Positions 2,490 to 31,492 of a stretch of DNA of 31,750 nucleotides are shown here, one piece after another; position 1 is the stretch's first letter; each line of letters starts with the position of its first letter. The notes beneath the pieces are model-generated. The model was given only the letters and a program-made list of their open reading frames with translations. It was not told the DNA's origin and searched no databases. The position numbers and the translations under genes were made by a program. Origin of the DNA: an uncultured bacterium (lineage in GTDB: Bacteria > CSSED10-310 > CAZUFC01); the NCBI GenBank assembly GCA_964619725.1, contig CAZUFC010000036.1, forward strand, positions 12,254 to 44,003, written 5' to 3'.

Positions 2490-4046
2490 ATGGTTTTTTT
2501 TAATCAATCTTTGGAAAAAATCGATTCTAAACTTCTTAAATTGGTGCCCAAAGGTGTGGCTTTGAGATATTGCGCCATACCTGTATCGCGCAAGGGTAAG
2601 GCGCTGTTGACGGCGATGGCTGACTGCGACAACAGGCAGCATTGTGAAGATTTAAAGAATATGACCGGTTTTGAGATTCACACTTTAACGAGCATCCGTC
2701 GCAAAGAGGTGGTAAATGCGATTATCCGTCATTATGAATTAACGGAAGATGAGGAGACGGATTTAAGGACGAAATGGGGTAATTCTGAGAACAAGCCGTC
2801 TGATTCACTTGTTTCATCGCTTGAGAACAACAATGTCGAAGATTCGAATTTATCGTTAGTGTTGGACGAGCCTTTTACGGAAGAAGGTGAGGATACAGCG
2901 AAATCTCTTTTCACGGAATTCATCAACAGAGCGTTTAAGAATCAGTATGAGCAGGTTATAGTTGATATCAAGCAAAGCGAGTGTATCCTCAGTTATCGTA
3001 AATTCGGGATATTATTTCCTGAACGGAGGTTATCGTCTTCAGGCGGGGAAACGTTGTCGGTTTTTTTAAGAGAAACGGCAGGAATGAGTCCACAGAATTA
3101 CGGCAGACCAGAACGAACGGAGATCAATTTTAAAACAGGCGATGATGAGGTGAAAGCGGGCATACTGAGCATTCCCACGGCATCGGGCGAGCAGTTCGTG
3201 ATCAACATGCCTTTAACTGTAGAAATGCCGGAAAGTCTTGAAGAGCTTAACATGCCGAAGGAGAGCATCAAGCATTTATTGCGCAGTTCCGGCAAGCGTC
3301 GCGGCCTGATCATATTTTCCGGTCCCCGCGGCAGCCAATATTTATTGACATTAAGGACTTTTCTAAAGGTATTTCCCCGGAAATGTCGTGAAATACACGT
3401 AATAGACGGTGAAGACCGTTTTCCTGAGAACGGGATATATTTTACGACGATCAAGCAGAACCATCATTTCAGTTTTAAAGAATACTATGAAAGCGGGTTA
3501 TATAGGGTTCCCGACATTTTAACGGTGATAAATCCGAATTTCGATCATTTTGACGGAACATTGCTCAAAGCTTCCCGTGAACGGCTGGTATTGGCGGCAT
3601 TCGAATCGAAGGATGCGGCGGAATCATTAACCATGACGGCGTGCGCCCCCCATTCCGACCACATATTCTATGAAATTCCGATAACGATATGTTCTCAGAC
3701 GGTATTAAGAACGCTGTGCAAGTTCTGCAGACAATCGGTAGAAGTGAAGCCTCGTATTCTAAAAGCTCTGAACCTGCCGACAGATGCATCATCCAGCCGT
3801 AAATTCTATCGCTCCACACCCGACGGATGCGAGAAATGCCGTGGAACCGGATACTCGGGTTATGTCATCCTGTATCAGTTTTTGCCGGTTGATGAGAATC
3901 TGAAAGAGATGGTAATCAACGGAGCGTCTCCATCTGCGGTGAGAGCCTTTATCCGTAAAAGCGGCGTACCCGATTTCAGAGAAACCGCACTTCAACATTT
4001 TCTTTCACGGGTGACCTCGCTGCATGAGGTGCTTCGGGTATCCTGA
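2490..4046 (+). CDS. PilB/GspE (T2SS/T4P secretion ATPase) family protein with degenerate catalytic motifs
   Basis: N-terminal T2SSE_N-like domain (VPKGVALRYCAIPV...AMAD); RGLIIFSGP; tetracysteine LCKFC...GCEKCRGTGYSG; C-terminal VTSLHEVLRVS. Walker A reads GPRGSQYL and Walker B reads PDILTVIN. SD GAGGA. Confidence 0.85.
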   Translation: MVFFNQSLEKIDSKLLKLVPKGVALRYCAIPVSRKGKALLTAMADCDNRQHCEDLKNMTGFEIHTLTSIRRKEVVNAIIRHYELTEDEETDLRTKWGNSENKPSDSLVSSLENNNVEDSNLSLVLDEPFTEEGEDTAKSLFTEFINRAFKNQYEQVIVDIKQSECILSYRKFGILFPERRLSSSGGETLSVFLRETAGMSPQNYGRPERTEINFKTGDDEVKAGILSIPTASGEQFVINMPLTVEMPESLEELNMPKESIKHLLRSSGKRRGLIIFSGPRGSQYLLTLRTFLKVFPRKCREIHVIDGEDRFPENGIYFTTIKQNHHFSFKEYYESGLYRVPDILTVINPNFDHFDGTLLKASRERLVLAAFESKDAAESLTMTACAPHSDHIFYEIPITICSQTVLRTLCKFCRQSVEVKPRILKALNLPTDASSSRKFYRSTPDGCEKCRGTGYSGYVILYQFLPVDENLKEMVINGASPSAVRAFIRKSGVPDFRETALQHFLSRVTSLHEVLRVS

Positions 4047-4580: not shown

Positions 4581-5828
4581 ATGAAGAGAAGTATTATTCT
4601 GACGTTGATGCTGCTCTCAGCGTCCAGCATATCGGTTTCGGCCGATGCTGAATTGCCGTTCTGGAGCGCCGGGGACTGGTTCCAGGTAAATCAGGTTTTT
4701 ACTGCCGAAGGCCTTGCCGAGGAAGTTGAGTTCGGTTTTTCGCTGGATATCGCTTCGTGCCGGTGGAATGTCGATGCTGTTGCAACAGAGAATATTCCGA
4801 GTTGCGGCGTGAGTTATGAGGTGTATAACATTGGATTTTCCAATTGCGGTGTAAGCGGAACGGGTACGATCGACATAGGGCTGGGCGACATTCCGATCGA
4901 ATTGCGCAACGGCGTTGTAAACGGTCATATGTATTGCCGTACTGAAGATATTTCGCCTGTTCTTTTTCTCATTTCTGCTCAGGGAGAATTATGGGGGAAC
5001 CTGGGCGGCGGATTCGTAGAAATAGGGACTCTGACCATGAATGACGTTCAGATGGAATTTTGTCCTTACATGCAGGATTTCGTATGGCCGCTTTATGCTG
5101 GTGCGACCTGGGACATGAATTTCACGATGTACATAACGGGAGACGTGACTGCCGAAACCACTCTGGGCGACTTTTCCTTTCCTCTGGACGAAAGTCAGTC
5201 CTTCAGTTTCAGCGGCGGCTGCACAGGCATGGAAACGGTCAACGGCTGTGAGTCGTATAAAATCGTAATGAACAGCAACCAGGGTCCGGGTCAACTGGTG
5301 CACTACTATTGTCCGGAGGATATACTCTGGTATGCTCTGAAAACGATATCAGATTTGTATTTTGAAGGCGACGGAGATGATTATTTCGATCTTCAGGAAT
5401 TAACCTGGAACGTAACTGACGCTTATCATGCGAGTCAGCCGACACCGACGCCGACTTCCACGCCGACGGATTGCACCGTAGCCGTGGACCTGGATATTTC
5501 GCAGGACACCTTTTATCCCGGGGACCTTTTCCTTTTGACGGCTTATATCTCCAATGAAGGACCCGACACGTACGACGACCAGCCTTTCGCCGTGGTCCTG
5601 GATGTTTATGGAACGTATTTCTTTTATCCCGGATGGACCGGCATGTTTGACTATACCCTGATCGATCTTGGGATTGAAACACGGGAATTGGAAATACTGA
5701 ATTTCACCTGGCCGCAGGAACCAAGTTCAGGCTCCGGCATAATATTCTACGGCGCGGTTTTGACCAATGATTTCTTAAATATTCTCGGTGAATTCGATAT
5801 GGTCGTTTTCGGATGGAATTATCCATAA
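4581..5828 (+). CDS. secreted acidic protein: signal peptide, unknown beta-rich domain, Pro/Thr linker, conserved ~120-aa C-terminal domain
   Basis: MKRSIILTLMLLSASSISVSADA signal peptide; PTPTPTSTPT linker (5439-5468); C-terminal domain aligns by eye with the end of the 19455-21809 protein. Confidence 0.85.
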   Translation: MKRSIILTLMLLSASSISVSADAELPFWSAGDWFQVNQVFTAEGLAEEVEFGFSLDIASCRWNVDAVATENIPSCGVSYEVYNIGFSNCGVSGTGTIDIGLGDIPIELRNGVVNGHMYCRTEDISPVLFLISAQGELWGNLGGGFVEIGTLTMNDVQMEFCPYMQDFVWPLYAGATWDMNFTMYITGDVTAETTLGDFSFPLDESQSFSFSGGCTGMETVNGCESYKIVMNSNQGPGQLVHYYCPEDILWYALKTISDLYFEGDGDDYFDLQELTWNVTDAYHASQPTPTPTSTPTDCTVAVDLDISQDTFYPGDLFLLTAYISNEGPDTYDDQPFAVVLDVYGTYFFYPGWTGMFDYTLIDLGIETRELEILNFTWPQEPSSGSGIIFYGAVLTNDFLNILGEFDMVVFGWNYP

Positions 5829-5942: not shown

Positions 5943-6009
5943 ATAATTAGTGACTGTCCAGCATTAAATATTGAATCGTGATTCGAGTTTGCGGACAGTC
6001 ACTAATTAT
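5943..6009 (-). repeat. palindromic MITE/REP-like element, family A (best-preserved copy); may also act as a bidirectional terminator
   Basis: Perfect 17-bp inverted repeat ATAATTAGTGACTGTCC / GGACAGTCACTAATTAT. The reverse-complemented interior (AAACTCGAATCACGATTCAATATTTAATGCT) closely matches the copies at 10788 and 25773. Confidence 0.85.
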
Positions 6010-8375
6010 CAGCCTACGCTGTGCTTTATGGCTATGCTGGCCTGGTTTCTTAATGTCTTTAAATAACTCAGCAGACTGTCGCTTATCTTATAGTTCTTCT
6101 GTTGAAGGTCCGCGTAAAACAGACCCACCGGAACATCTCTTACTACCAGCGGATACAGGATAAACGAAGGAGCGTTTATCGATCTCTTGTACCACAGAGG
6201 TATATCCTTTCTTATTTCAGGATCATCCGCGTCTTTTATGAAATAATCTTTTCTCTGGATGACTGCTTTATTGAATATATCCCTCTTGCCTTCGATATCG
6301 AAAATGAATTTTTTGATGACTCTGTCAACATCATTTCCATAGCCTAATCGCGCTTTCATTCTCGTCCGGGAGGCATCCAACATGCAAAACACGACCCGAT
6401 CGAATCTGAAACCTCGAAAAATCGTCTCCAGAATCATGATCATAACATCGTTCAGATCGAAATCGTCCATTAATATGTTCGTTATTTCCTGGATTCCGCT
6501 CAATAATCCCTTTAACTGCCCCTCCTCTTGCGTTTCCGGTTTTATTTTTTCGTCCGGCTGTTTCTCGGCGGGTTTCTTCGCTATTTTCTCCTTTTCTTCT
6601 TCCGTCGCTTCATCCACCGACTCAAGAACTGAAGGATCGCTATTAAGGCGCTTTATAAACCGGCTCTGCTTCACATCAATGTTCATGATATGGGAATATT
6701 CCTTCAATTTTTCCGTAGAAGAATCAATCAGTTCTCGTATTTCGCCGTCAGAGATTTGAATGCTCTTTTCAAATCTGTTTCTCAAATTCAGAAGCGCATC
6801 GTCTTTCGCCGAACCGGTTTTATTCTGAATAATATCGCACAGTTCATTCGAAAAATTCGTCACGGTTTTCAACGCATCCAGCTCAGATGCGGGTTTATCG
6901 ACTTCGCCCCCCCGCAGCCGGCTGGTAGCCTCGGTTATCATATCAGGGAAACGCCAGGCCTTGAGAACAGCTTTTCCAAGTTCTTCGTAGGAAACGCCGA
7001 GAACAGCTCTGGCCGCAAAATTTTCTTTGACTTTCCCGCCTGATGTTTTCTTTTTTATTTTTTCGTATTCATCCGGAAGATAGAAAATGATCACGAGTTT
7101 TCCCAGATTATAGAGCATAGCGCAGATAAAAACTTTTTCTTTGATATTCAATTTTTGAGATTCAGCAACGTCTCCGGCGATTATGCCGCTCATAAAGCAT
7201 TGCATAGCCGTATCCTGAAGATCAACGACCGATTTTTTGTCCCTTAGATGATCGAACAGTATAAGGCTGGCAGCGGCCATTCTGACGTTTTCAAATCCCA
7301 ATACCACTACAGCCCTTGATATGGTGGCGATTTTACCGGAAAACTGTCCGTAAAAAGCTGAATTGACGAGTTTCAGGAGTTTTGTGGTGAGAGAATAATC
7401 TTTCAAGATGACATTGGCGAGCTGTGAGGCTGAAATAAATTTTTCTTCCGCTTGAAACACATGCTGATTGATTTGCACTATCGATTTGACGAATCCCGGG
7501 AAATGCTTCTCAAAGTTTATCCTGCGCATTAACCTTTCCAGGTTCTCCTCCGATTCGTCCACAGCCTGACTTTTACTTCCCTTCTTGCCGACGGACCTTT
7601 TCCGGCTGTATTCAGTGAGTTCTTTTTCTAATTGCTCTACCGAACTGAACCGTTCGCCCCGCTTCCTGTTCAGAGCTTTCATCACGATTTCATCGATCAA
7701 CTCATCCGCCTGATCATTTATATGTGAAGGCGGGTCCAACTTTCCTCCGCTCGCTGCAACGCTCCTGGCCCCATTATCCCTTTGTATCGGACAGGCAGTC
7801 AGCATTTCATAAAAAAGCTCCCCCAGCGACAGAATGTCCAGGTAAGTCGCAGCTCTATCATCGCTCTGCTCCTGGCTTGACACCATTTCCGGTTTTAAAC
7901 CAGTTGATCCGGAATTCAGATAAAAAACGCCTAAATCCATAATTACCGGTATACGGTCTTCTTTCAGTATCACCTTGGATGCATCCAGGCGGCCGTGTAC
8001 TATACTCTTTTTATGAATTGAATTCACTGCGCGAGTGATCGATTGCATCAATTCCATCGCCTGATGCAATTCCAGCTTGCCCTTCCGCCTGATATGATCC
8101 CGTACGCTCATCCCTTTTACATATTGAAAAATTATATAGGGCCGTCCTGACTCTTCCCCGATTTCATATATCCTGTTGATGTAAGGATGTTTTAATTCAG
8201 TCAGATTGCCTACCGGCTGAATTTTATTGCCTTTTGCTGAATCCCCGTGAATGCTCGCCCCGTTAAACCTTTTTATCAGTACCTTTTCTTTCCGTTTCGA
8301 GTCCATTCCGAGACTCAAAGACTCTCCAGCATGACTTTCAAGACTTTTGAGAATGGTAAATTGTTTGAAATGCAT
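6009..8375 (-). CDS. Ser/Thr-kinase-like (probable pseudokinase) - HDOD - GAF signalling protein
   Basis: Kinase subdomains VLIK, LKHPYINRIYEIG, PYIIFQYVKG, DLG, DILSLG, RFSSVEQL; HDOD motifs LANVILKDYSLTTKLLKLVNSAFY, ISRAVVVLG, WRFP; C-terminal GAF-like domain (YPLVVRDVPVGLFYAD). Start set at ATG 8375 (TAAGGA SD); the ORF track starts at 8522. Confidence 0.85.
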   Translation of the reverse strand: MHFKQFTILKSLESHAGESLSLGMDSKRKEKVLIKRFNGASIHGDSAKGNKIQPVGNLTELKHPYINRIYEIGEESGRPYIIFQYVKGMSVRDHIRRKGKLELHQAMELMQSITRAVNSIHKKSIVHGRLDASKVILKEDRIPVIMDLGVFYLNSGSTGLKPEMVSSQEQSDDRAATYLDILSLGELFYEMLTACPIQRDNGARSVAASGGKLDPPSHINDQADELIDEIVMKALNRKRGERFSSVEQLEKELTEYSRKRSVGKKGSKSQAVDESEENLERLMRRINFEKHFPGFVKSIVQINQHVFQAEEKFISASQLANVILKDYSLTTKLLKLVNSAFYGQFSGKIATISRAVVVLGFENVRMAAASLILFDHLRDKKSVVDLQDTAMQCFMSGIIAGDVAESQKLNIKEKVFICAMLYNLGKLVIIFYLPDEYEKIKKKTSGGKVKENFAARAVLGVSYEELGKAVLKAWRFPDMITEATSRLRGGEVDKPASELDALKTVTNFSNELCDIIQNKTGSAKDDALLNLRNRFEKSIQISDGEIRELIDSSTEKLKEYSHIMNIDVKQSRFIKRLNSDPSVLESVDEATEEEKEKIAKKPAEKQPDEKIKPETQEEGQLKGLLSGIQEITNILMDDFDLNDVMIMILETIFRGFRFDRVVFCMLDASRTRMKARLGYGNDVDRVIKKFIFDIEGKRDIFNKAVIQRKDYFIKDADDPEIRKDIPLWYKRSINAPSFILYPLVVRDVPVGLFYADLQQKNYKISDSLLSYLKTLRNQASIAIKHSVG

Positions 8376-8806
8376 AAGAATCCTTATGATGTTTTCATTG
8401 ATTATTCGAAATGAGAAGCTTTTGTCCCAATCAACCAAAAAAGTGAAGAACCTGTATGCAGCGGCTGTTTCAAGCTGTCGCATACCGCTCTCCGGGTTAA
8501 CGCCGGAGCGCTTAGTCTCCATTATAAGAAGATTGAGATTTGAATCAATATCGTTAAGGATTTTTTTGCTTCAAAAGATGGAAAACGTTGTATCTATCTG
8601 GTTTTATTATGTTTTATTCTGACTGGAAAAGTAAAATCATGGGGATGATCGCTGTGAAATGACGGCATGCCGCGGATTTTGTTTTAAAGCCTGTTGGCGA
8701 TTCAATTTTGAGGACCTATAATATGTCTGAAAGAGTGGTTCCGATGTTTGAAAGCCGGATTTCGGAGCCGCGCTGGAGGACGTTAAGGCATGAGGATGAA
8801 GCGAAG

Positions 8807-10787: not shown

Positions 10788-10848
10788 TAATTAGTGCCTG
10801 TCCATAAACTCGAATCTCGATTCAAAATTTAATGCTGGACAGCCACTT
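10788..10848 (+). repeat. palindromic MITE/REP-like element, family A
   Basis: TAATTAGTGCCTGTCC...GGACAGCCACTT ends; interior near-identical to 5943-6009 (reverse) and to 25773-25830. Confidence 0.85.
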
Positions 10849-10850
10849 GG

Positions 10851-10993
10851 GTTTTTGATCCATAAACGGGCGAATTTATCTTAAGTCAAGGAAGGCAAGG
10901 ATTTGCGAGTCAGGGGTATTGCTTATACGTTGACTGAGCAAATCCGCAGCCTGACGCACTATTAGGGGAAATTCGCCGTTTATGGACAAAAAC
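10851..10993. mobile_element. ~143-bp MITE-like element, family B, folding as one long imperfect hairpin
   Basis: Terminal inverted repeats GTTTTTGATCCATAAACGGGCGAATTT / AAATTCGCCGTTTATGGACAAAAAC; nested stems GTCA/TGAC, GGATTTGC/GCAAATCC, AGTCA/TGACT, GTAT/ATAC; no ORF. Confidence 0.65.
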
Positions 10994-19454: not shown

Positions 19455-21809
19455 TCAATCAGCCAGAATGTCGAATTCGATTGAGTCCAGTTCTCCGATA
19501 AGCATCGCAGCTTCCATATCAACCATAGCGCCGTGAAAATACAGATCAGGCAAATCTTCAACCAGAGCGGGCATGCCGAAAGTTTGGAGTATAAGCAGCT
19601 CCATGGTCCCCGTGCCCAGGTCGATCTCTCTGTAGTCTATCATGCCCGTGGCGCCGTATGACGTCCAGCTTGGCCAGAAGAACAACTCTCCGTAAACATC
19701 CAGAATCACGAACAAAGGCACGTCCTCCATCGGGTCGCCCGGATTGCTTATGACGGCATTGACCCAGCAGTCGTCCCCTTCATAATAATGATTTGACGGC
19801 ATAATGAGCTGAACTCCCAATTCCAGCGTATCCTCCACCAGATTGTATCCCTTGCTCAAACTCGGATTAAAATTGTTTCTCGTATTGAATTCCTGTTCTC
19901 CCCCGGAATCGACCACCTTTTCTAATATCGTGTAAATCCTGTATTTGCCCTCCTCGGATACCTGCAACGTATTCCAGTAAACGGCTCTCTCGAAAACCGC
20001 TCCCCCGAAAGCTTCCACGGCAGGCAATTTTTCCTCATATATCAATGTCGAAGAAGAATATTGAGGATCATCCAGGATATTGTTCGGCGTTTCTTCAAAA
20101 TATACTTTCAATTTGGCTCCCGCTGCATCGCTTTCACCGAAATTCCTCACCTTGATGTTTATTTTAACTTTTTCTCCGATAAGGGCAGTCTGCGGAGGAA
20201 AAAACGCAATGTCCTCCCGGAATATGGTCAGATCGGGTTGAACGGTCCTGAATCTGCCGTTGATGCGGGCATCAGCCGAAGTGACGACGCCGGCATCCTG
20301 ATACCAGTCTCTGACGGCTCTCCAGCACTCAATTTCCGTTTCCAGGGGATTCTGAATTTCAATTGGATAGAATTCAGAAAGAGGATTATTATCCAGGATA
20401 AAATATTCAGCCCAGTTGACTCCAATTTTATACCATTCATCATCCTGCAGCTCTTCCCCGTTGATTAAAAAACTGATGAATGATTCCGATCCCGCATTGG
20501 GATCGATAATGATCTCCATCCCTGAATTATTGAAATAGTAACCCATCAGCGTCGATAAACCGAATACCGTTTTTAAATTCGTCCCCTGCACTTCACAGGA
20601 CCACAACTTCAGATTCTCGTCCGTATAGGGATCATATCCGTAAGGAAAAGACTCATAGGCGTTACTTGAATTGATGATTCCGACATCGATATTCTCGGCC
20701 ATAAAATTATCCGTGACCAGGACCGCATCAGCGTCATAACCGTTTGAATTCAATGATTCAAGAAAAATATCGGCATACAGATTTCCCATATTCGATTCAG
20801 TGTTGCGCACGAATAAATCAATATAACTCTCGCATATCGCATCATCAAACGGATAATCGTATTTCTCATTGATCGCTTCAATCTGCTCTTCAACCAAAGC
20901 CTTGACGTCCGCATCTTCTTCGACTTCCGGCAAAGTGAAGATCAACTGAGAATCATCAAGCAGCGTTTCGCCTGTATTTGAATTATAAGTCAAATCGACT
21001 CGCCCCAGGCACCGGTAAAACTCCCAGGCCTGGACTACCCAGGTAATTTCTCCCAATGGGTTCTCCACTTCTACAGCTTCTTCCAGAACAGTATGAGAAT
21101 GACCGCCTACGATCAGGTCTATTCCTGCAACGTCCGAAGCCAAATCCATATCGGAATATTCGCCGCTGCTGTTGAATCCCAGATGACTCAGACAAATTAT
21201 GATGTCGACGCCCTCCCCTTCCAGAAAAGAGACCATCTCTTCCGCTTTTTCTTCCGGGTTCGTCACTTCAACCGGTTCAAAAAACAGCGTGTAAAGAAAA
21301 GTCTCGGTAGTCAGCCCGAAAAGTCCGACCTTGAAGTCAGCGAAATTAAATATGACATATTCCTCAACCAGTGAATCCAGATTGCCGTAACCGTGAAAAT
21401 CCACATTGCTCAATAAAACAGGATAGGTCGGAGATTCAGAAGCAAGTTTGTCCTCCAGAAAGTCGGGACGATACAGGTAATCATGGTTGCCTATGACCAC
21501 CGCATCATAATCAAGATATTCTTCATTCCTTAAACGCAGTTCCAGGGACCCCGACCCTGCGATATTATGAAAAAAGGTCCTCTCGCTCCAATCTCCCGCA
21601 TCCAGCAGGAGTACGTTTTCGGAAAGCATCCGCTCCTGCTCTATCAGGGTCGCCATGCGAGCCGCCCCGCCCCAGGCCGTTCCTTCTTCAGCCGCAGCCA
21701 GTCTCGTATGAGTATCATTGGTGTGGAGAATCGTCAGGGAATAATTTTCAGCCAGCGCCGCGCCGGCCAGGCAGAATATGGTTATAAACATTACTATCGC
21801 TTGCTTCAT
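19455..21809 (-). CDS. secreted 5'-nucleotidase/UDP-sugar hydrolase family metallophosphoesterase with CARDB-like Ig domain and conserved C-terminal domain
   Basis: ILHTNDTH, LLLDAGD, GNHD, LSHLG, IVGGHSH, ESNMGNLYAD; PDL...VKINIKVRNFGESDA...EFNTRNN (CARDB-like). Start at ATG 21809 (GGAGG SD); the ORF track starts at 21842. Confidence 0.9.
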   Translation of the reverse strand: MKQAIVMFITIFCLAGAALAENYSLTILHTNDTHTRLAAAEEGTAWGGAARMATLIEQERMLSENVLLLDAGDWSERTFFHNIAGSGSLELRLRNEEYLDYDAVVIGNHDYLYRPDFLEDKLASESPTYPVLLSNVDFHGYGNLDSLVEEYVIFNFADFKVGLFGLTTETFLYTLFFEPVEVTNPEEKAEEMVSFLEGEGVDIIICLSHLGFNSSGEYSDMDLASDVAGIDLIVGGHSHTVLEEAVEVENPLGEITWVVQAWEFYRCLGRVDLTYNSNTGETLLDDSQLIFTLPEVEEDADVKALVEEQIEAINEKYDYPFDDAICESYIDLFVRNTESNMGNLYADIFLESLNSNGYDADAVLVTDNFMAENIDVGIINSSNAYESFPYGYDPYTDENLKLWSCEVQGTNLKTVFGLSTLMGYYFNNSGMEIIIDPNAGSESFISFLINGEELQDDEWYKIGVNWAEYFILDNNPLSEFYPIEIQNPLETEIECWRAVRDWYQDAGVVTSADARINGRFRTVQPDLTIFREDIAFFPPQTALIGEKVKINIKVRNFGESDAAGAKLKVYFEETPNNILDDPQYSSSTLIYEEKLPAVEAFGGAVFERAVYWNTLQVSEEGKYRIYTILEKVVDSGGEQEFNTRNNFNPSLSKGYNLVEDTLELGVQLIMPSNHYYEGDDCWVNAVISNPGDPMEDVPLFVILDVYGELFFWPSWTSYGATGMIDYREIDLGTGTMELLILQTFGMPALVEDLPDLYFHGAMVDMEAAMLIGELDSIEFDILAD

Positions 21810-22036
21810 GATTCCGTTAACCTCCTGCTGATCATTCAACAAATGGGAATGTTATCCTCTGCAGATGCTACTAAATTCAAACCGGAAAATCAACAGTTTC
21901 GGAATGCCGATGCTCCGGTTACACTTCTTTCAGTGAGGACCGGCCCAACATACAACTGAGCGCGACAGATTTGATCCGGTTTTCGGGATCGTTCCGCCCG
22001 CTGTTAGACTTTTTTCAAAACGTTTGACGGTTTGTT

Positions 22037-25772: not shown

Positions 25773-25850
25773 TTAGTGTATGTCCACAAACTCGAAGCCC
25801 GATTCAAAATTTAATGCTGGACAGCCACTTGGGTTTTTGATCCATAAACG
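25773..25850 (+). repeat. family-A element plus left end of family B
   Basis: 25800-25850 is identical over 51 bp to 10818-10868. Confidence 0.9.
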
Positions 25851-26091
25851 AGTTAGAATTGCGCCTGCTCCTCTTATCTTCCCTCCCGACGACGACCGGG
25901 CGAGCATAGGGTGACTTTGGACAAACGGAAATTGAGCGAATAGAGACGAAAAAACTTGTATCAGAGGCAGCATTTGGAGTAATTTGTAATGTCTGTTCTC
26001 TCCGGGAGCAGAGGAAGGAATGAATATCCGGAGAATATTTCCGTCGCTATGAATCGGAAAAAATTCAAATGTGCTTTACAGAGGAACCGAG

Positions 26092-27888
26092 ATGATCAAA
26101 TTCAGATATGTCACAGTCGCAGTCGTGATGATAATGAGCATTTTCCTGTCGTGGGCTGTGCTGGGCGAAATGAAGCAACTGGAAGGAGCTTCGCCGAAGG
26201 AAGCAATCAATGTAATACTCATATCCCTGGATACGCTGAGGGCCGATTATGTAGGAATATACGGGAACCCGGAGCCGCTGACGCCGTTTTTGGATGAGCT
26301 TTTGTCAGAAAACGTATGGTTCAGGGACTGTATCGTTCAGGCCCCCTGGACGCTTGCTTCCCACATGAGTTTATTAACATCTCAATACCCCAACGTACAT
26401 AACGTCAACCTGGCGGAAGCCAAGCTTGCGGAAGGCAAAAAAACGCTGGCTCATTATCTGAGCGAATACGGATATTATACGAAAGGAATTATCAGCAATC
26501 CTTTTTTGAGTCATGGATTCGGTTTTCACCGGGGATTCGACGCCTACAATGACGCGGGCAAAAAACACGGTTATCAGAGCACGCAACAATTTGTTCAGTG
26601 GGTGGAAGGCGCGCACAATAAAAATCAGCCGTTTTTTCTTTTTCTTCATTACAATGATCCGCACATGCCGTACCAGGCGCCGACGCCGTTCTATAATCTT
26701 TTCGACAGAGAATACGAAGGATCGGTGTCCGGGTCGAGAAACGACATAGTGAAGTATGTGCGACGGCCCATAGAGGAACGGGACCTTCAGCACATCAGGA
26801 ATCTTTACGGCGATGAGGTCCGGTATCTCGACAACCAGCTCTACCAGGTTTTCTGCATATTAAAAGAACTGGGCCTGTATGAAGACAGCCTGATAATAAT
26901 GACTGCGGATCACGGAGAAGAATTCAAGGAACACGGAAAGCTGGAACACAATCAGACCCTTTACGAAGAATTGATACGATCGCCCCTTGTCATTAAATTT
27001 CCTGAAAAAATGAACATCCGGCCGCGCATGATATCACGCCAGGTCAAAAACATAGACCTCCTGCCCACGATATTGGACGTCGTCGGAGCTCCCATACCGG
27101 AAGATTCCGTGCAGGGACAATCCCTTCTTCCGTTAATACTTGAGGAACCCGGAACGGAAAATTTCAATCACATGATTTTCTCCGAAAGCGCCAACACGCA
27201 CAAAGTATCGATTCGCAGCGAAAATTGGAAATATATTTACGATCGACGATATGACCAGGAAGAATTATACAATCTGGAAACGGACCCGGAAGAAAGACAA
27301 AACCTTATTTCATCCGAACCTGAACTGGCCGCGGAACTTTCCGAACTGGTAAATAATTACATGATGCAGGCTCAGAGCGGCTGGCATCTGAGGACGCGTT
27401 ATCCTTTTAACATACGCGGAGTTCTGAGGACGACGGGACGTTTTACGCCTGTAAAGGCTTTTACGATTGAAGAAGATGATTCATTGGAAGTTTCCGGGGA
27501 CCAGAAGGAGATTTTTTTCAATTTCAAAAGTGAAAAAAGAGCCGACACTCTGGACGGAATCGATTTCAATCTTCTGCCGTCCGATGCTGCACTTGAACTG
27601 GAAATCCTCGACGCCGGGGACCTTTCGATATCATCCGCGCTTTCCAGAATCTATATCGGCAGCCGGTACGCAAAACCGTCGAAGCATCCCGTTCCATTGA
27701 CTGGCGAACGTCTTACCGCAGACCCTCTAGTCGATATAACCGATCTGATAATCATTACGAAAAGCCGAAGGGGAAAAATTCCCGGTCTTTACATCTGGAA
27801 ATTGCGCGACAGGGAGCAGAAAATTCAATGGGCCGACATAGATCAAAATACTCGCCAACGACTGGAAAGCCTCGGTTATTTCCGGTGA
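26092..27888 (+). CDS. membrane-anchored or exported sulfatase-like hydrolase/transferase (alkaline-phosphatase superfamily, Thr at the nucleophile position)
   Basis: NVILISLDTLRAD, TPFLD, QAPWTLASHMSLLTS (no CxPxR), FLHYNDPHMPY, TADHGEEF, LYEELIRSPL, ELYNLETDPEE; N-terminal hydrophobic segment; ends RQRLESLGYFR. Start at ATG 26092 (GAGGA SD). Confidence 0.9.
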   Translation: MIKFRYVTVAVVMIMSIFLSWAVLGEMKQLEGASPKEAINVILISLDTLRADYVGIYGNPEPLTPFLDELLSENVWFRDCIVQAPWTLASHMSLLTSQYPNVHNVNLAEAKLAEGKKTLAHYLSEYGYYTKGIISNPFLSHGFGFHRGFDAYNDAGKKHGYQSTQQFVQWVEGAHNKNQPFFLFLHYNDPHMPYQAPTPFYNLFDREYEGSVSGSRNDIVKYVRRPIEERDLQHIRNLYGDEVRYLDNQLYQVFCILKELGLYEDSLIIMTADHGEEFKEHGKLEHNQTLYEELIRSPLVIKFPEKMNIRPRMISRQVKNIDLLPTILDVVGAPIPEDSVQGQSLLPLILEEPGTENFNHMIFSESANTHKVSIRSENWKYIYDRRYDQEELYNLETDPEERQNLISSEPELAAELSELVNNYMMQAQSGWHLRTRYPFNIRGVLRTTGRFTPVKAFTIEEDDSLEVSGDQKEIFFNFKSEKRADTLDGIDFNLLPSDAALELEILDAGDLSISSALSRIYIGSRYAKPSKHPVPLTGERLTADPLVDITDLIIITKSRRGKIPGLYIWKLRDREQKIQWADIDQNTRQRLESLGYFR

Positions 27889-27925
27889 TTTCATCAGCAA
27901 ACTGTAAAAGAAATAACGATTAGGG

Positions 27926-27954
27926 TTGACAGGAACGCTTTCCGGGAGTAAAAG
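27926..27954 (+). promoter_or_regulatory. possible sigma70 promoter for sat
   Basis: TTGACA-17 bp-TAAAAG in the 217-bp gap before sat. Confidence 0.45.
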
Positions 27955-28105
27955 AATCTTCCTTGCTCATCGTAAGATTGATGCAGGGTATTTTGATCAA
28001 TTAATCGAGATGTCGTCGAGGTTCGATTTCACCTGGAAAGAGAAGATTCACGGATCGAATCGCGACGATGATAATTTTAATTTTTCGTATTTTGGGGAGG
28101 TTGTT

Positions 28106-29257
28106 ATGCTGATCAGGCCTCATGGAGGAAAGCTCGTTAATCGGATGGTTACGGCGAGAGAGAAAGAAGAATTAATGAATCAATGCAGCGATTTGGTTCA
28201 AATTTCTTTGTCGGATGACAAATTGAAAGAAGTCAGGAACATCGCTCACGGCGTTTTCAGTCCCCTGGAAGGTTTTATGACCCGTTTGGACCTTGATCCC
28301 GTCGTCACCGACAGCAGGCTCTCCGACAATAATTATTGGACGGTGCCGATACTGCTGGCCGTCGACCGGAATCTGGTCGAAAAACTGGAAATGAACTCAA
28401 AAGCGGCGCTGACCGATTCTGAAGGAAAAATCTACGGGGCATTGACCATTGAAGATATATTTGAATACGACAAGAAGAAAATGGCCAAAAGCGTGTTCGG
28501 AACGGAAGATGCCGAACATCCCGGAGTAGCTAAAATTTATGGTGAAGGCGATTATTACATCGGCGGACCTATCGACCTGTTTGAAGCGCCTCCCACGCCT
28601 TATGACGACAATTACCTCTCCCCCAGGGAAACCCGTTACCTGTTCAACCGCCTGGGCTTCAGAACAGTAGCCGCCTTTCAGACGAGAAATCCTCCTCACA
28701 GAGCACACGAATACCTCCAAAAATGCGCTCTTGAAGTCTGCGACGGTTTGTTCATTAACCCTGTCATCGGAAAGAAAAAAGTGGGCGATTTTACCGACCA
28801 TCTCATTCTTAAAACTTACAGAAAACTGATCGAAGCGTTTTATCCGAAAGATAGGGCCGTTCTCAGCATACTTCCCTGGGAGATGAGATACGCGGGTCCC
28901 AAGGAAGCTATTTTCCACGGCATCGTCAGAAAGAATTTCGGCTGCTCGCATCACATTATCGGTCGCGATCACGCGGGAGTCGGCGATTATTACGGCACAT
29001 TCGACGCGCAGGAGATTTTCTCGGAGTTTCCCGGACTTGAAATCGAACCCCTGAAATTCGAACACTCCTTTTATTGCGTAAAGTGCGGAAATATGGGAAC
29101 GTGCAAAACCTGCCCCCATCCCAATGAGGACCACGTTAATCCCAGCGGAACGAAAATCAGAGGCGTCGTTACCGAAGGCGCTGAAGTGTCGCCCAAGATA
29201 ATGCGTCCGGAAATAGCCGGAATTATCGCTTCAGACGATGACCCATTTGTGAAATGA
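28106..29257 (+). CDS. sat: sulfate adenylyltransferase (ATP sulfurylase, Sat type)
   Basis: PHGGKLVNR, FSPLEGFM, HPGV, FQTRNPPHRAHEY, MRYAGPKEA, GRDHAGVG, Zn-site CVKC...CPH, SGTKIR. Start at ATG 28106 (GGGGAGGT SD); the ORF track start at 27926 is too long. Confidence 0.98.
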   Translation: MLIRPHGGKLVNRMVTAREKEELMNQCSDLVQISLSDDKLKEVRNIAHGVFSPLEGFMTRLDLDPVVTDSRLSDNNYWTVPILLAVDRNLVEKLEMNSKAALTDSEGKIYGALTIEDIFEYDKKKMAKSVFGTEDAEHPGVAKIYGEGDYYIGGPIDLFEAPPTPYDDNYLSPRETRYLFNRLGFRTVAAFQTRNPPHRAHEYLQKCALEVCDGLFINPVIGKKKVGDFTDHLILKTYRKLIEAFYPKDRAVLSILPWEMRYAGPKEAIFHGIVRKNFGCSHHIIGRDHAGVGDYYGTFDAQEIFSEFPGLEIEPLKFEHSFYCVKCGNMGTCKTCPHPNEDHVNPSGTKIRGVVTEGAEVSPKIMRPEIAGIIASDDDPFVK

Positions 29258-29399
29258 GACGGATGTATGCCGGATACTAAAATGCGGAAAACAATTCACA
29301 ATGAATGATTCACGGAGCTCTTTCAGAACCATCAGGTTAAAAAACTTCAAAAACAGCCGCTGAATCGTCGAACGCATTGTCGCACCGGAATAAACAGCC

Positions 29400-30797
29400 A
29401 TGACCAGAACTCAAAAAAAACTCGTAGTAATAGGACTCGACTGCGCTTCCCCCGAACTGATCTTTGAAAAATGGATCGATGACCTGCCCAATTTCCGCAG
29501 ATTGATATCCTCAGCCGTATACGGTCGCCTGAAAAGCACTATCCCTCCCATCACTATTCCCGCCTGGGCATCCATGCTGACGGGCATGTCGCCCGGACAC
29601 CTGGGCGTATACGGCTTCCGGAACCGCCGATCACATAAATACGGCGATGAATCCTTCGCCGTATCAAGCTCCGTCAGATACCCCATGATCTGGGAACTGC
29701 TGTCCAATTTCGGAAAATCTTCCGTCGTGATCGGCGTTCCCCAGACTTATCCGCCCAAACCATTCAACGGCAAACTCGTTTCAGGTCTGCTTACGCCGGG
29801 AAATCAGGCGCCTTATACGCATCCCCTCAGCCTTAAACAGGAACTTGAAAATAAATTCGGCGACATTATCTTCGATATCGATCACTTTCGTGAGCTGGAC
29901 AAACGAAAACTGGCCGAAAGAATACGTGAAATGTCCGATCAGCGTTTCGCCCTGGCTGATTACCTGATGCAAAACAGTAAATGGGATTTCTCGATCTTCG
30001 TCGATATGGGTCCAGACAGACTCCACCACGGATTCTGGAAATACATGGATGAAACTCATCCCAAACATAACCCGGACTCGCCTTTCGCAGACATCATTAA
30101 GGATTACTACAAACACCTGGACACACTGATCGGCAATCTCACCGCTCAACTCGATCCCGATACCGCCGTTATTATCGTATCAGACCACGGAGCCCAGGCC
30201 ATGCACGGCGGAGTCTGCCTCAATGAATGGCTGAGGAAAAAAGGTCTTCTGACCCTTAAACAGGAACCTGAAAAACCTTCCCCGCTCAATTTCGATATGA
30301 TCGACTGGAAAAATACGAAAGCCTGGGGTTACGGCGGATACTGCGGTCGGATTTGTCTGAACGTTGTAAATCGAGAACCTGAAGGCACTGTTGAGCAGCA
30401 GGACTTCGAAAAAATGAAAAATTCCATCGCTGAAAACCTGATCTCTATTAAAAGACCGGACGGCTCTCCTATGAACAACAGGATTTTCGATCCGCGAAAA
30501 ATTTACTCGCCCGCCAACGGAATACCCCCGGACCTCATCGTCTACTTCGATGACCTGAAATGGCGCTCCGTCGGCAGCGTCGGGACAGACTCAATCTATA
30601 CCTTCGAAAACGACCTGGGCCCCGACGACGCAAACCACTCCGAATACGGCATCTATATACTCCATTCGCCTCATTTCAATAAATCAGTATCGCACGAATC
30701 AAACCTGTTGAATATTACGCCGACTATTCTTCAGTACTTCAATCTGCCCTCGCCGGACAGACTTATAGGTCAACCTATAACGGCAGATTTCAGATAA
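29400..30797 (+). CDS. cytoplasmic alkaline-phosphatase-superfamily protein (NPP/type I phosphodiesterase-like, COG3379-type)
   Basis: VVIGLDCA, LKSTIPPITIPAWASMLTG..PG..GVYGF, DRLHHGFW, IIVSDHG, DDANHSEYGI, ITPTIL; no signal peptide. Confidence 0.9.
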   Translation: MTRTQKKLVVIGLDCASPELIFEKWIDDLPNFRRLISSAVYGRLKSTIPPITIPAWASMLTGMSPGHLGVYGFRNRRSHKYGDESFAVSSSVRYPMIWELLSNFGKSSVVIGVPQTYPPKPFNGKLVSGLLTPGNQAPYTHPLSLKQELENKFGDIIFDIDHFRELDKRKLAERIREMSDQRFALADYLMQNSKWDFSIFVDMGPDRLHHGFWKYMDETHPKHNPDSPFADIIKDYYKHLDTLIGNLTAQLDPDTAVIIVSDHGAQAMHGGVCLNEWLRKKGLLTLKQEPEKPSPLNFDMIDWKNTKAWGYGGYCGRICLNVVNREPEGTVEQQDFEKMKNSIAENLISIKRPDGSPMNNRIFDPRKIYSPANGIPPDLIVYFDDLKWRSVGSVGTDSIYTFENDLGPDDANHSEYGIYILHSPHFNKSVSHESNLLNITPTILQYFNLPSPDRLIGQPITADFR

Positions 30798-30877
30798 AAT
30801 ATTATGAACGTAAATCTCATCACTGAAAATATTCTTCATTTTCAACAAAAAACACACCCTTGAAGGAGGTTGTCATC

Positions 30878-31492
30878 GTGGAACACCCCGGATTCACTCT
30901 TTGGTTCACAGGATTACCCTGCTCAGGAAAAACCACCCTCGCCGATCACGTCGCTGATCGACTGAAAAAGCTGGGAATGAATATTGAACGCCTGGACGGA
31001 GATATCGTCCGTAAAGGTCTTACCAGGGACCTCGGATTCTCAAAAGAAGACAGAGACATGAACATCGAACGAGTCACCTTCGTGGCCAAACTGCTCAGCA
31101 GGAACAATGTGGGCGTTCTGCTTTCCTTCGTCTCCCCTTACATTAAAGCCAGGGACAACGCCAGAAAAGAATGTACCAATTTTATCGAAGTATTCGTAAA
31201 AGTTTCCCTGGAAGAAGCGGAAAAACGTGACGTCAAAGGTATGTATAAAAAAGCCAGGCAGGGAATCATAAAGGATTTCACGGGCGTCGACGACCCCTAT
31301 GAAGAACCGCCTCGTGCCGAAATCATCGTGGACACCGACGTCGAATCCCTCGAGGAAAGCTCGGATAAAGTCGTTGATAAACTGAAAGAATTAGGTTTCA
31401 TACCGACTGAAGAAGCAGACGTCTTTTCTAAAGAAGAAGAAGAAACAATTAAAGCAAGACTCGAAAACCTGGGATACCTGGATCGGAACTGA
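30878..31492 (+). CDS. cysC: adenylyl-sulfate (APS) kinase
   Basis: WFTGLPCSGKTT, LDGDIVR, DLGFSKEDRDMNIER, RDVKGMY, FTGVDDPYEEP; GTG start at 30878 with AAGGAGGT SD; extra C-terminal tail. Confidence 0.98.
   Translation: MEHPGFTLWFTGLPCSGKTTLADHVADRLKKLGMNIERLDGDIVRKGLTRDLGFSKEDRDMNIERVTFVAKLLSRNNVGVLLSFVSPYIKARDNARKECTNFIEVFVKVSLEEAEKRDVKGMYKKARQGIIKDFTGVDDPYEEPPRAEIIVDTDVESLEESSDKVVDKLKELGFIPTEEADVFSKEEEETIKARLENLGYLDRN

Follow-up and report, generated by a model that had tools for sequence, protein, structure and literature searches.

Why do two unrelated secreted proteins of an uncultured bacterium end in the same domain? The question was raised by a window of 31,750 nucleotides (the whole stretch of DNA that was analysed), in which the original prediction, made from the letters alone, had seen a candidate protein sorting or anchoring system. 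The window belongs to a 9.17 Mb assembly, labelled G000 here, which is CSSED10-310-like; its relatives bearing a name are CSSED10-310, and all data come from MAGs. In the text available of PMC8248873, CSSED10-310 is a diderm phylum, sister to Acidobacteriota. Below, "module" denotes the shared C-terminal domain of about 117 aa. The two genes comprise the following features:

4581..5828, plus strand: copy-1 gene, 415 aa, with signal peptide, beta-rich cargo of unknown function, Pro/Thr linker and Ig-like module (ORF list, profile match)
4581..4643, plus strand: Sec-type signal peptide of copy 1, about aa 1-21 (sequence reading and home-made rule)
4650..5435, plus strand: cargo domain of copy 1 (Atlas cluster comparison)
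5439..5468, plus strand: Pro/Thr linker PTPTPTSTPT, aa 287-296 (sequence reading)
5475..5825, plus strand: module copy 1, aa 299-415, 117 aa, a predicted eight-strand Ig-like beta-sandwich, CARDB/GH66-N-like, with a Pro-x-Trp insertion after the C-C' hairpin (profile, fold model, fold comparison)
19455..21809, minus strand: copy-2 gene, with signal peptide, 5'-nucleotidase, CARDB and module (ORF list, Pfam/NCBIfam)
21750..21809, minus strand: Sec-type signal peptide of copy 2, about 20 aa, with AALA at its end (sequence reading and home-made rule)
21090..21734, minus strand: Metallophos, copy 2 (Pfam)
20412..20807, minus strand: 5_nucleotid_C, copy 2 (Pfam)
20082..20240, minus strand: CARDB, copy 2, an upstream domain separate from the module (Pfam)
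19458..19820, minus strand: module copy 2, 121 aa (alignment to copy 1)

Two secreted proteins with one terminal module

As predicted, the two proteins end in one domain. Copies 1 and 2, which lie 13.6 kb apart, share 46 identities over 117 positions (39%, E 2e-20), and the residue pattern quoted for them is present. Both N-termini are signal-like, in agreement with the proposed Sec signal peptides, and that of copy 1 would be cut after VSA or ADA. The listed ORF of copy 2 (19455-21842, minus strand) opens with TTG at 21842, and its likely start is 21809. The PTPTPTSTPT linker lies before copy 1 as described; a Pro/Thr linker is absent from copy 2.

Pfam and NCBIfam searches with the whole copy-1 protein matched nothing. 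Its cargo domain is closest to an Atlas cluster of archaeal hypothetical proteins (0.91), and the scores against DUF3108-like clusters (0.84-0.86) are a lead only. Four paralogs of this cargo occur in G000, all with the module at the end. A scan for promoters and terminators around copy 1 gave results at chance level only. The 21-kb stretch containing copy 2 occurs twice in the assembly. The copy-2 protein also has a 5'-nucleotidase paralog, C40:22837 (28% over 732 columns), in which the module is N-terminal. Since these two proteins are related, the same cargo type bears the module at opposite ends.

The module family in the genome

A profile search of the 76,915 six-frame ORFs of G000 found the module in 228 of them (core profile, E ≤ 1e-3), and 217 of the about 6,100 genes called in the genome bear it. 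The expectation of many copies per genome is therefore borne out, and the possibility that these two were the only copies is refuted. Reversed ORFs of G000 gave no match (first-round profile, E ≤ 0.01), which puts the count well above chance. A pattern scan with the single domain returned 2 loci only. Judged by their sequences, the module copies are old and diverse. Their median identity is 27%, and only 3 pairs among 209 copies are more than 90% identical, so that duplication cannot account for the copy count.

In 218 of the 227 matches of the first-round profile (about 96%), the module ends within 10 aa of the stop codon; this profile took in linker columns, and one of its matches was to a linker only. 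Five ORFs carry a non-terminal module: directly after the signal peptide in C153:3829 and C40:22837, internally in C179:522 and C104:5774, and both internally and terminally in C112:3106. In a tree of 76 module copies, most of which lacks resolution, the non-terminal copies of G000 are interspersed with terminal ones.

Most carriers are probably exported. According to a home-made rule (not SignalP), which replaced a laxer rule with a 50% background, Sec-type signal peptides occur in 163 of the 201 carriers of at least 300 aa, compared with 624 of 2360 other soluble proteins. No carrier of this length is polytopic, and a Tat motif was found in 0 of 206 carriers. Seventeen carriers shorter than 250 aa have no signal peptide and are probably fragments. 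In 150 of 216 carriers, the 30 aa preceding the module contain at least 4 Pro-Thr/Ser dyads. The cargo forms 101 clusters among 203 proteins, and the search thus returned what had been foreseen, mostly signal-peptide proteins with diverse cargo. Sixty-four of 150 listed family proteins were scanned, and 24 of them have a Pfam match at 1e-8 while 40 have none. The matched cargo consists of M14, M6, C1 and trypsin-like peptidases, deiminases, phosphatases, endonuclease I, GH15, VWA, and Kelch and BNR propellers. Other cargo types seen on the module are C25 and S8 peptidases, peptidyl-arginine deiminases and adhesin-like proteins.

Sequence and predicted fold of the module

The module is, as far as sequence comparison can tell, absent from every domain library searched, and searches of open-access full texts found no description of it. 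Copies 1 and 2 have no Pfam or NCBIfam match at E ≤ 1, and no match of 42 G000 members and 34 wider aligned members reaches E 0.02. The original reading had seen none of the features of T9SS, dockerin, SLH, PEP-CTERM and LPXTG proteins, and our searches agree with it. TIGR04183 and PF18962 match neither copies 1 and 2 nor the 42 plus 34 members; dockerin (PF00404) and SLH (PF00395) gave no Pfam match and the model is all-beta; and the combination of motif, transmembrane helix and basic tail (PEP/IPTL/LPXTG type) is absent, with a hydrophobic tail in 0 of 228 carriers. A characterised Pfam family such as a CBM was looked for as well, and no catalogued CBM family matches the module. The gathering score of CARDB (PF07705) is not reached, one of 34 members matching at E 0.095.

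In the AlphaFold2 model the module is an eight-strand beta-sandwich (pLDDT 97.5). Its best fold match is the N domain of GH66 dextranase 5axg (Z 10.5, rmsd 2.6, 102 aligned). Other matches are RbmA (Z 9.6-10.0; rmsd 3.0 and 104 aligned at Z 10.0), CARDB 3idu (Z 9.5-9.8, rmsd 2.6-2.8, 97-99 aligned), the carbohydrate-binding domain of Wzt (Z 8.6-9.1) and a porphyran CBM (Z 7.8). For this predicted structure the top matches are effectively tied, are of a generic Ig level, and include non-binding domains. A viral fold library likewise gave generic Ig matches only. The T9SS CTD is absent among the fold matches listed, and a likeness to it may still exist. Sequence-level PDB matches to LDL-receptor repeats and arrestins were weak and were dismissed as chance.

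The best conserved residues are G16-D17, N27, L42, P52-x-W54, F77-x-W79-P80 and a terminal F-G-aromatic. The Pro-x-Trp insertion is presumably a family-specific element, judged against the CARDB pattern. Phe, Trp and Tyr make up 17.4% of the module and 11.5% of the cargo. With its acidic character (median net charge -13), the module is less likely to bind directly to anionic LPS. No conserved cleavage motif was found preceding the module.

Distribution across bacteria

Eleven of 14 genomes of the phylum have 59 to at least 148 module matches. No module was found in the other three, G001, G002 and G004 (96, 87 and 93% complete), with a wider profile too (11 candidates per genome scored). Among 387 genomes from outside the phylum, 8 have matches: G053 with 85 copies, G371 with 82, G108 with 15, G057 with 6, G066 with 4, two genomes with a single match, and G221 with 94 (E ≤ 0.05). 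The wider profile, partly built from outside genomes, raises G108 to 30 and G066 to 16. The proteins that cluster with these are labelled Ca. Coatesbacteria (family f47, with 82-94 matches per genome), Nitrospinae (G108) and Ca. Tectomicrobia (G066).

The outside copies are judged to be true homologs. They align with the G000 family at a profile-profile probability of 99.7% (E 1e-25, 113 columns), and a model of an outside copy (pLDDT 91) has the identical strand order. The module is therefore not phylum-specific and, on these comparisons, it is expanded in at least four lineages beyond the phylum; the earlier idea of a lineage-specific tag is not borne out. In a representative library 2,885 proteins match the module (E ≤ 1e-3), and it stands at the end in 154 of 159 fetched. 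Twenty fetched outside loci include 4 proteins with an N-terminal module and 4 with tandem copies. Thus the predicted C-terminal position holds for most carriers, and it fails for the five G000 ORFs above and for 4 proteins in the outside loci with N-terminal or internal modules. In G221, two or three copies are present in 4 of the 8 ORFs of at least 3000 aa versus 4 of 69 shorter ones (p=0.003), and this preference of tandem copies for giant proteins is what avidity would predict.

The module and other C-terminal tails

Three kinds of tail recur in G000: the module (228), a tripartite tail of Pro motif, transmembrane helix and basic residues (170), and another folded domain, here the second module (33). 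The choice-of-anchor X motif matches its homologs in G057, 1 of 3 above cut-off. Three membrane tails scanned have no NCBIfam match at 1e-5, and a short exosortase is present in 14/14 phylum genomes. No protein in G000 carries both the module and a membrane tail. C28:34971 has the second module internally together with a divergent terminal copy of the Ig-like module. For 37 of 203 carriers, a paralog (at least 70% mutual cover, at most 50% identical) ends in a membrane tail or the second module. S8-type homologs from the module-less genomes mostly have membrane tails (14 ends fetched, 7 readable to the stop, 6 of these 7), and those from G057 have the second module at the end (6/6). Because the module and the membrane tail are mutually exclusive, paralogs swap tails, and module-less genomes use membrane tails, the module appears to fill the slot of an anchor.

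The composition of the cargo is consistent with this. Cargo with less than 7.5% Lys+Arg is the rule among carriers (186 of 199) and tail proteins (150 of 153) and rare among lipoproteins (1 of 25) and proteins that lack a signal peptide (44 of 1710); the remaining signal-peptide proteins have a bimodal distribution, 173 of 538 lying below 7.5%. We read the Lys+Arg-poor cargo of carriers and tail proteins as indicating an extracellular location; this signal is not independent, given that both groups share cargo families.

Secretion machinery

Secretins are found in 14/14 phylum genomes. G000 has a full type A T2SS operon on contig C26 (gspEFGHIJKLMD, then Big_1 lipoproteins) and a type B T2SS on C55 (a shorter gspCDEFG). 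GspD is above cut-off in G000; in the operon of G006, GspD, G and M are above and GspK is below. A GspC-like homolog, under the NCBIfam cut-off, is present in 10 of 11 module-rich genomes. Type A GspD occurs in all 11 module-rich phylum genomes and also in the module-less G001 and G004.

Outside the phylum, 30 of 387 genomes pass E 1e-70 for type A GspD, among which the 6 module-rich ones rank 1, 2, 3, 4, 7 and 12. A GspD tree was built from 44 sequences, including 24 of the 30 outside genomes and excluding G008. A clade of 22 members (SH-aLRT 99) takes in all 16 module-rich genomes on the tree. It also contains G001, G004, G098, G284, G188 and G019, which have no or one module copy, so the T2SS type would be at most necessary. 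No close GspD was found in six outside genomes whose module match is weak or low in copy number (11 candidates scored); one of these six is G314, with one good module copy (E 4e-16). RpoB identity to G000 is 43% for G053 and 52-54% for G098, G284 and G108; G059 and G089 (53-54%) have neither the module nor type A GspD. This control is rough, its scores being lowered by split matches. From these sequences, kinship accounts for the GspD likeness of G057, the closest outside genome by RpoB, and not for that of family f47. A T2SS route is favoured because one GspD clade contains every module-rich genome on the tree, including the RpoB-distant G053. A faster tree had placed f47 and the module-rich GspDs as sisters (89), a grouping that did not resolve with more rows and a better model.

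Two candidate partners were rejected. First, a TPR-secretin-cohesin protein occurs in 9 of the 11 phylum genomes rich in the module and in none of the 3 without it, but as a universal receptor it fails, not being found in the module-rich G053, G221, G066 and G108. Second, the Big_1 lipoprotein behind gspD is present in the module-less G001 and G004 too, and was not seen there in G053 and G221. A complex prediction for the module with the N0-N1 of type A GspD and the HR of the PDZ-less GspC of G000 scored 0.00 twice; it was a three-chain job set against a two-chain calibration, and it speaks neither for nor against such binding.

Possible function of the module

As the best explanation, with a probability of roughly 45%, we propose that the module is a folded portable Ig-like domain that is retained after T2SS export as a non-covalent surface tether. 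The unfolded chain would first pass through Sec, as the signal peptides and the lack of Tat motifs suggest, and would then fold in the periplasm. Passage of the outer membrane may use one T2SS subtype, gspEFGHIJKLMD with a PDZ-less GspC, as co-occurrence indicates. Finally, the Pro/Thr linker would space the module from the enzyme, and the module would bind a surface glycan or an anchored protein. It would thereby represent a non-covalent alternative to the exosortase-processed membrane tail on homologous cargo. In other bacteria, membrane-tail proteins (GlyGly-CTERM, MYXO-CTERM) surface via T2SS, according to the text available of the two sources (PMC11980579; bioRxiv 2023.06.07.544157). The N-terminal, internal and tandem copies argue for a retained binding module rather than a cleaved terminal signal, and the C-terminal bias in itself fits a signal equally with an anchor. 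As to the original proposal of an export or surface-docking tag, the docking part agrees better with the data than a cleaved export signal does, and export probably takes a known route, T2SS.

A less probable reading, though one to be taken seriously, sees in the module a portable domain dedicated to T2SS recognition, which would recruit soluble periplasmic cargo to GspC/GspD for release into the medium, with no anchoring. A folded signal can act at either end of a chain, and the co-occurrence with one GspD clade is consistent with such an address. The Ig fold of VesB and the Fn3 domains of PelI and Pel3 are precedents, as far as the available parts of the sources describe them (PMC12369372; PMC7949064). 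Moreover, of the 6 module-rich loci inspected, 4 (G000, G005, G006 and G007) have a carrier downstream of the type A T2SS operon and co-oriented with it, and an S8 carrier lies directly before the type B gspC-gspD in 3 of 8 (G003, G007 and G008). However, the operon-adjacent carriers belong to one large beta-helix family and are not mutual closest paralogs, that of G000 ranking 18th-28th, and the S8 link is missing in G000, G005, G009, G010 and G011; this synteny, involving genes of large families, is not independent evidence. Searches for a PDZ-bearing GspC found none in G006 and G013, and all three module-less genomes have it. VesB pairs its Ig signal with a membrane tail, but here 0 of 170 tail proteins have the module, so that tail proteins pass without it, and avidity more readily explains the tandem copies on giant proteins. 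The two readings are compatible with each other. It is similarly conceivable, and no more probable, that the module is the graftable address of one T2SS subtype, borne by hundreds of substrates in each genome and shared along with that subtype by distant phyla, a counterpart of the T9SS CTD, and possibly also a tether.

It seems unlikely that the module is CBM-like, attaching enzymes to a polymer or particle outside the cell and playing no part in sorting. Its aromatic richness would fit, as would RbmA, the Wzt carbohydrate-binding domain and the porphyran CBM among its fold neighbours and the Pro/Thr linkers, which are typical of CBM enzymes. However, the cargo (proteases, nucleases, phosphatases, glycosidases, deiminases and adhesin-like proteins) has no common substrate, its fold matches are of a generic kind, with non-binding domains scoring equally, and tail proteins would gain from such a module, yet none of the 170 has one.

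Least of all do we expect the export-tag side of the original reading in a T9SS-like form, in which a sortase would cleave off the module and an outer-membrane translocon would provide the passage: the Sec signal with a C-terminal Ig-like sandwich, the typical cargo (C25, M14, M6, C1 and S8 peptidases and peptidyl-arginine deiminases) and the TPR-secretin-cohesin pattern within the phylum, which any clade-specific gene would mimic and which breaks down in the four outside genomes, are set against PorV (PF19572) in 0 of 14 phylum genomes with a positive Bacteroides control, the N-terminal, internal and tandem copies, and the missing cleavage motif. The analysis lends no support to a T9SS-like route. 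SprA was found in 0 of 5 genomes, but the control likewise gave no match, as did the control for the Por_Secre_tail genome searches.

By the module, a few percent of all genes in several uncultured phyla can be recognised as encoding surface or secreted proteins. Should the tether reading be true, it points to a ligand in the cell envelope and to surface display by a second route alongside exosortase tails. T2SS substrates are thought, in the available text of PMC12369372, to share no common signal; if the T2SS address reading were true, the long-open selection of these substrates would become directly testable, with an explicit answer for these lineages. Under either reading, a portable module of 117 residues might find use as a tag for display or secretion.

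Comparison with known systems

Judged by sequence and architecture, the module works like several known address and anchor modules and fails sequence membership in each. It resembles the T9SS type A CTD (TIGR04183/PF18962, Por_Secre_tail) in that a Sec signal is combined with a C-terminal Ig-like sandwich on unrelated enzymes and adhesins, hundreds per genome. The type A CTD has seven strands and is cleaved by PorU, as stated in the available text of PMC4804311. In contrast, the module has 8 predicted strands in 117 aa, has no HMM match, is not accompanied by a PorV in the 14 phylum genomes, and also occurs N-terminally, internally and in tandem.

The Ig/Fn3 determinants of T2SS substrates, such as Vibrio VesB, Dickeya PelI or Pectobacterium Pel3, and the N domain of Klebsiella PulA, are also non-catalytic Ig-like domains on Sec-exported enzymes of T2SS-bearing diderms, at either end. 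However, these are single-protein determinants, whereas the module is one family on more than 200 proteins per genome, with a putative T2SS dependence, and unlike the Ig domain of VesB it never occurs with a membrane tail in G000. It shares with PEP-CTERM, IPTL-CTERM, GlyGly-CTERM and MYXO-CTERM signals (exosortase-type enzymes, T2SS) the position after a Pro/Thr linker and the cargo families. Unlike these tripartite signals, it would be soluble and folded, has no transmembrane helix or basic tail, and implies no processing enzyme.

Dockerin and SLH modules are portable at either end, occur in tandem copies and follow Pro/Thr linkers, and in these respects the module is like them and like RbmA-type FnIII domains. 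It differs from dockerin and SLH in being all-beta in the model, without duplicated calcium loops or helical repeats. Finally, CARDB and the N-terminal Ig domain of GH66 dextranase are the best fold matches, with shared G-D, N-x-G and W-P positions, which we take to be those of the CARDB pattern. The module is set apart from both by sequence, by its extra Pro-x-Trp insertion and by its expansion as a terminal module.

Genes and repeats around the two copies

Two genes flank copy 1, the first copy of the module.

2490-4046 (+): GspE/PilB-like protein, standing alone, with MshEN and T2SSE domains
6009-8522 (-): signalling protein with kinase-like, HDOD and GAF domain matches

Copy 1 starts 535 nt downstream of the former and is convergent with the latter. 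The Walker A position of the GspE/PilB-like protein reads GPRGSQYL, which we take to be degenerate relative to the consensus. Therefore, judging from its sequence, this protein may be an inactive c-di-GMP-binding paralog.

Window positions 10787-31750, including copy 2, recur on another contig of the same genome (C117) over 20,964 nt at 99.995% identity. The stretch was either duplicated recently or doubled as an artefact of assembly. The left end of this stretch is the site of a short repeat, found twice in the window (94% identity between the sites).

10791-10868: repeat of ~78 nt, first site
25773-25850: second site

With 305 matches of at least 50 nt in the genome, the repeat is possibly a MITE- or REP-like element. 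The window also carries a predicted sulfate-activation cluster, which perhaps serves sulfated glycans.

26071-31492 (+): consecutive genes for a sulfatase-family protein, sulfate adenylyltransferase, an unassigned protein of 465 aa and adenylyl-sulfate kinase

Secretion-related genes elsewhere

L114:2203-4578 (source genome contig C12) and L072:9545-11914: TPR-secretin-cohesin fusion
L105:5353-6282 (contig C4): PDZ-less GspC-like gene
C20:34724-43638: pilus/T2SS-like cluster

Upstream of the fusion lie a TPR gene and two genes resembling a sigma/anti-sigma pair; no gsp genes adjoin it. It is present in 9 of the 11 module-rich genomes of the phylum and in G057, a module-bearing genome outside it, and in 0 of the 3 module-less phylum genomes. 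In G053, also module-bearing and outside the phylum, a homolog of that TPR gene lies upstream of gspE of the type A (gspEFGHIJKLMD) operon. The PDZ-less GspC-like gene, whose alignment consensus contains the lipobox-like motif L-x-G-C, lies within the type A operon in the module-less G001 and in four module-bearing genomes outside the phylum (G057, G053, G221 and G066), and outside that operon in the module-rich phylum clade. The C20 cluster, with a pilin N-terminus apparently of FCB type, may be part of the 6.5% contamination of the bin.

Other C-terminal regions

C86:30048-33221: protein with cohesin-like end
C24:4113-9431 and C12:65667-67838: ORFs with second folded module
C34:1691-37966: ORF with membrane tail, 12,076 aa
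C134:13003-13455: exosortase

Eleven large secreted proteins of the source genome share a C-terminal region of cohesin-like appearance, one of them having Pfam cohesin and dockerin matches. A second folded C-terminal module (~115 aa, frequently tandem) occurs in 33 of its ORFs and also at loci L098-L103 of G057; it has a choice-of-anchor X-like motif and terminal residues W-P-Y-L-x-V, and secretin genes adjoin two of its carriers. Finally, 170 ORFs of the source genome bear IPTL-CTERM-like membrane tails, and a short exosortase is found once per genome across most of the phylum. Three membrane-tail examples, from the module-rich G005 and G006, had no NCBIfam match at 1e-5; these tails may constitute an uncatalogued subtype of sorting signal.
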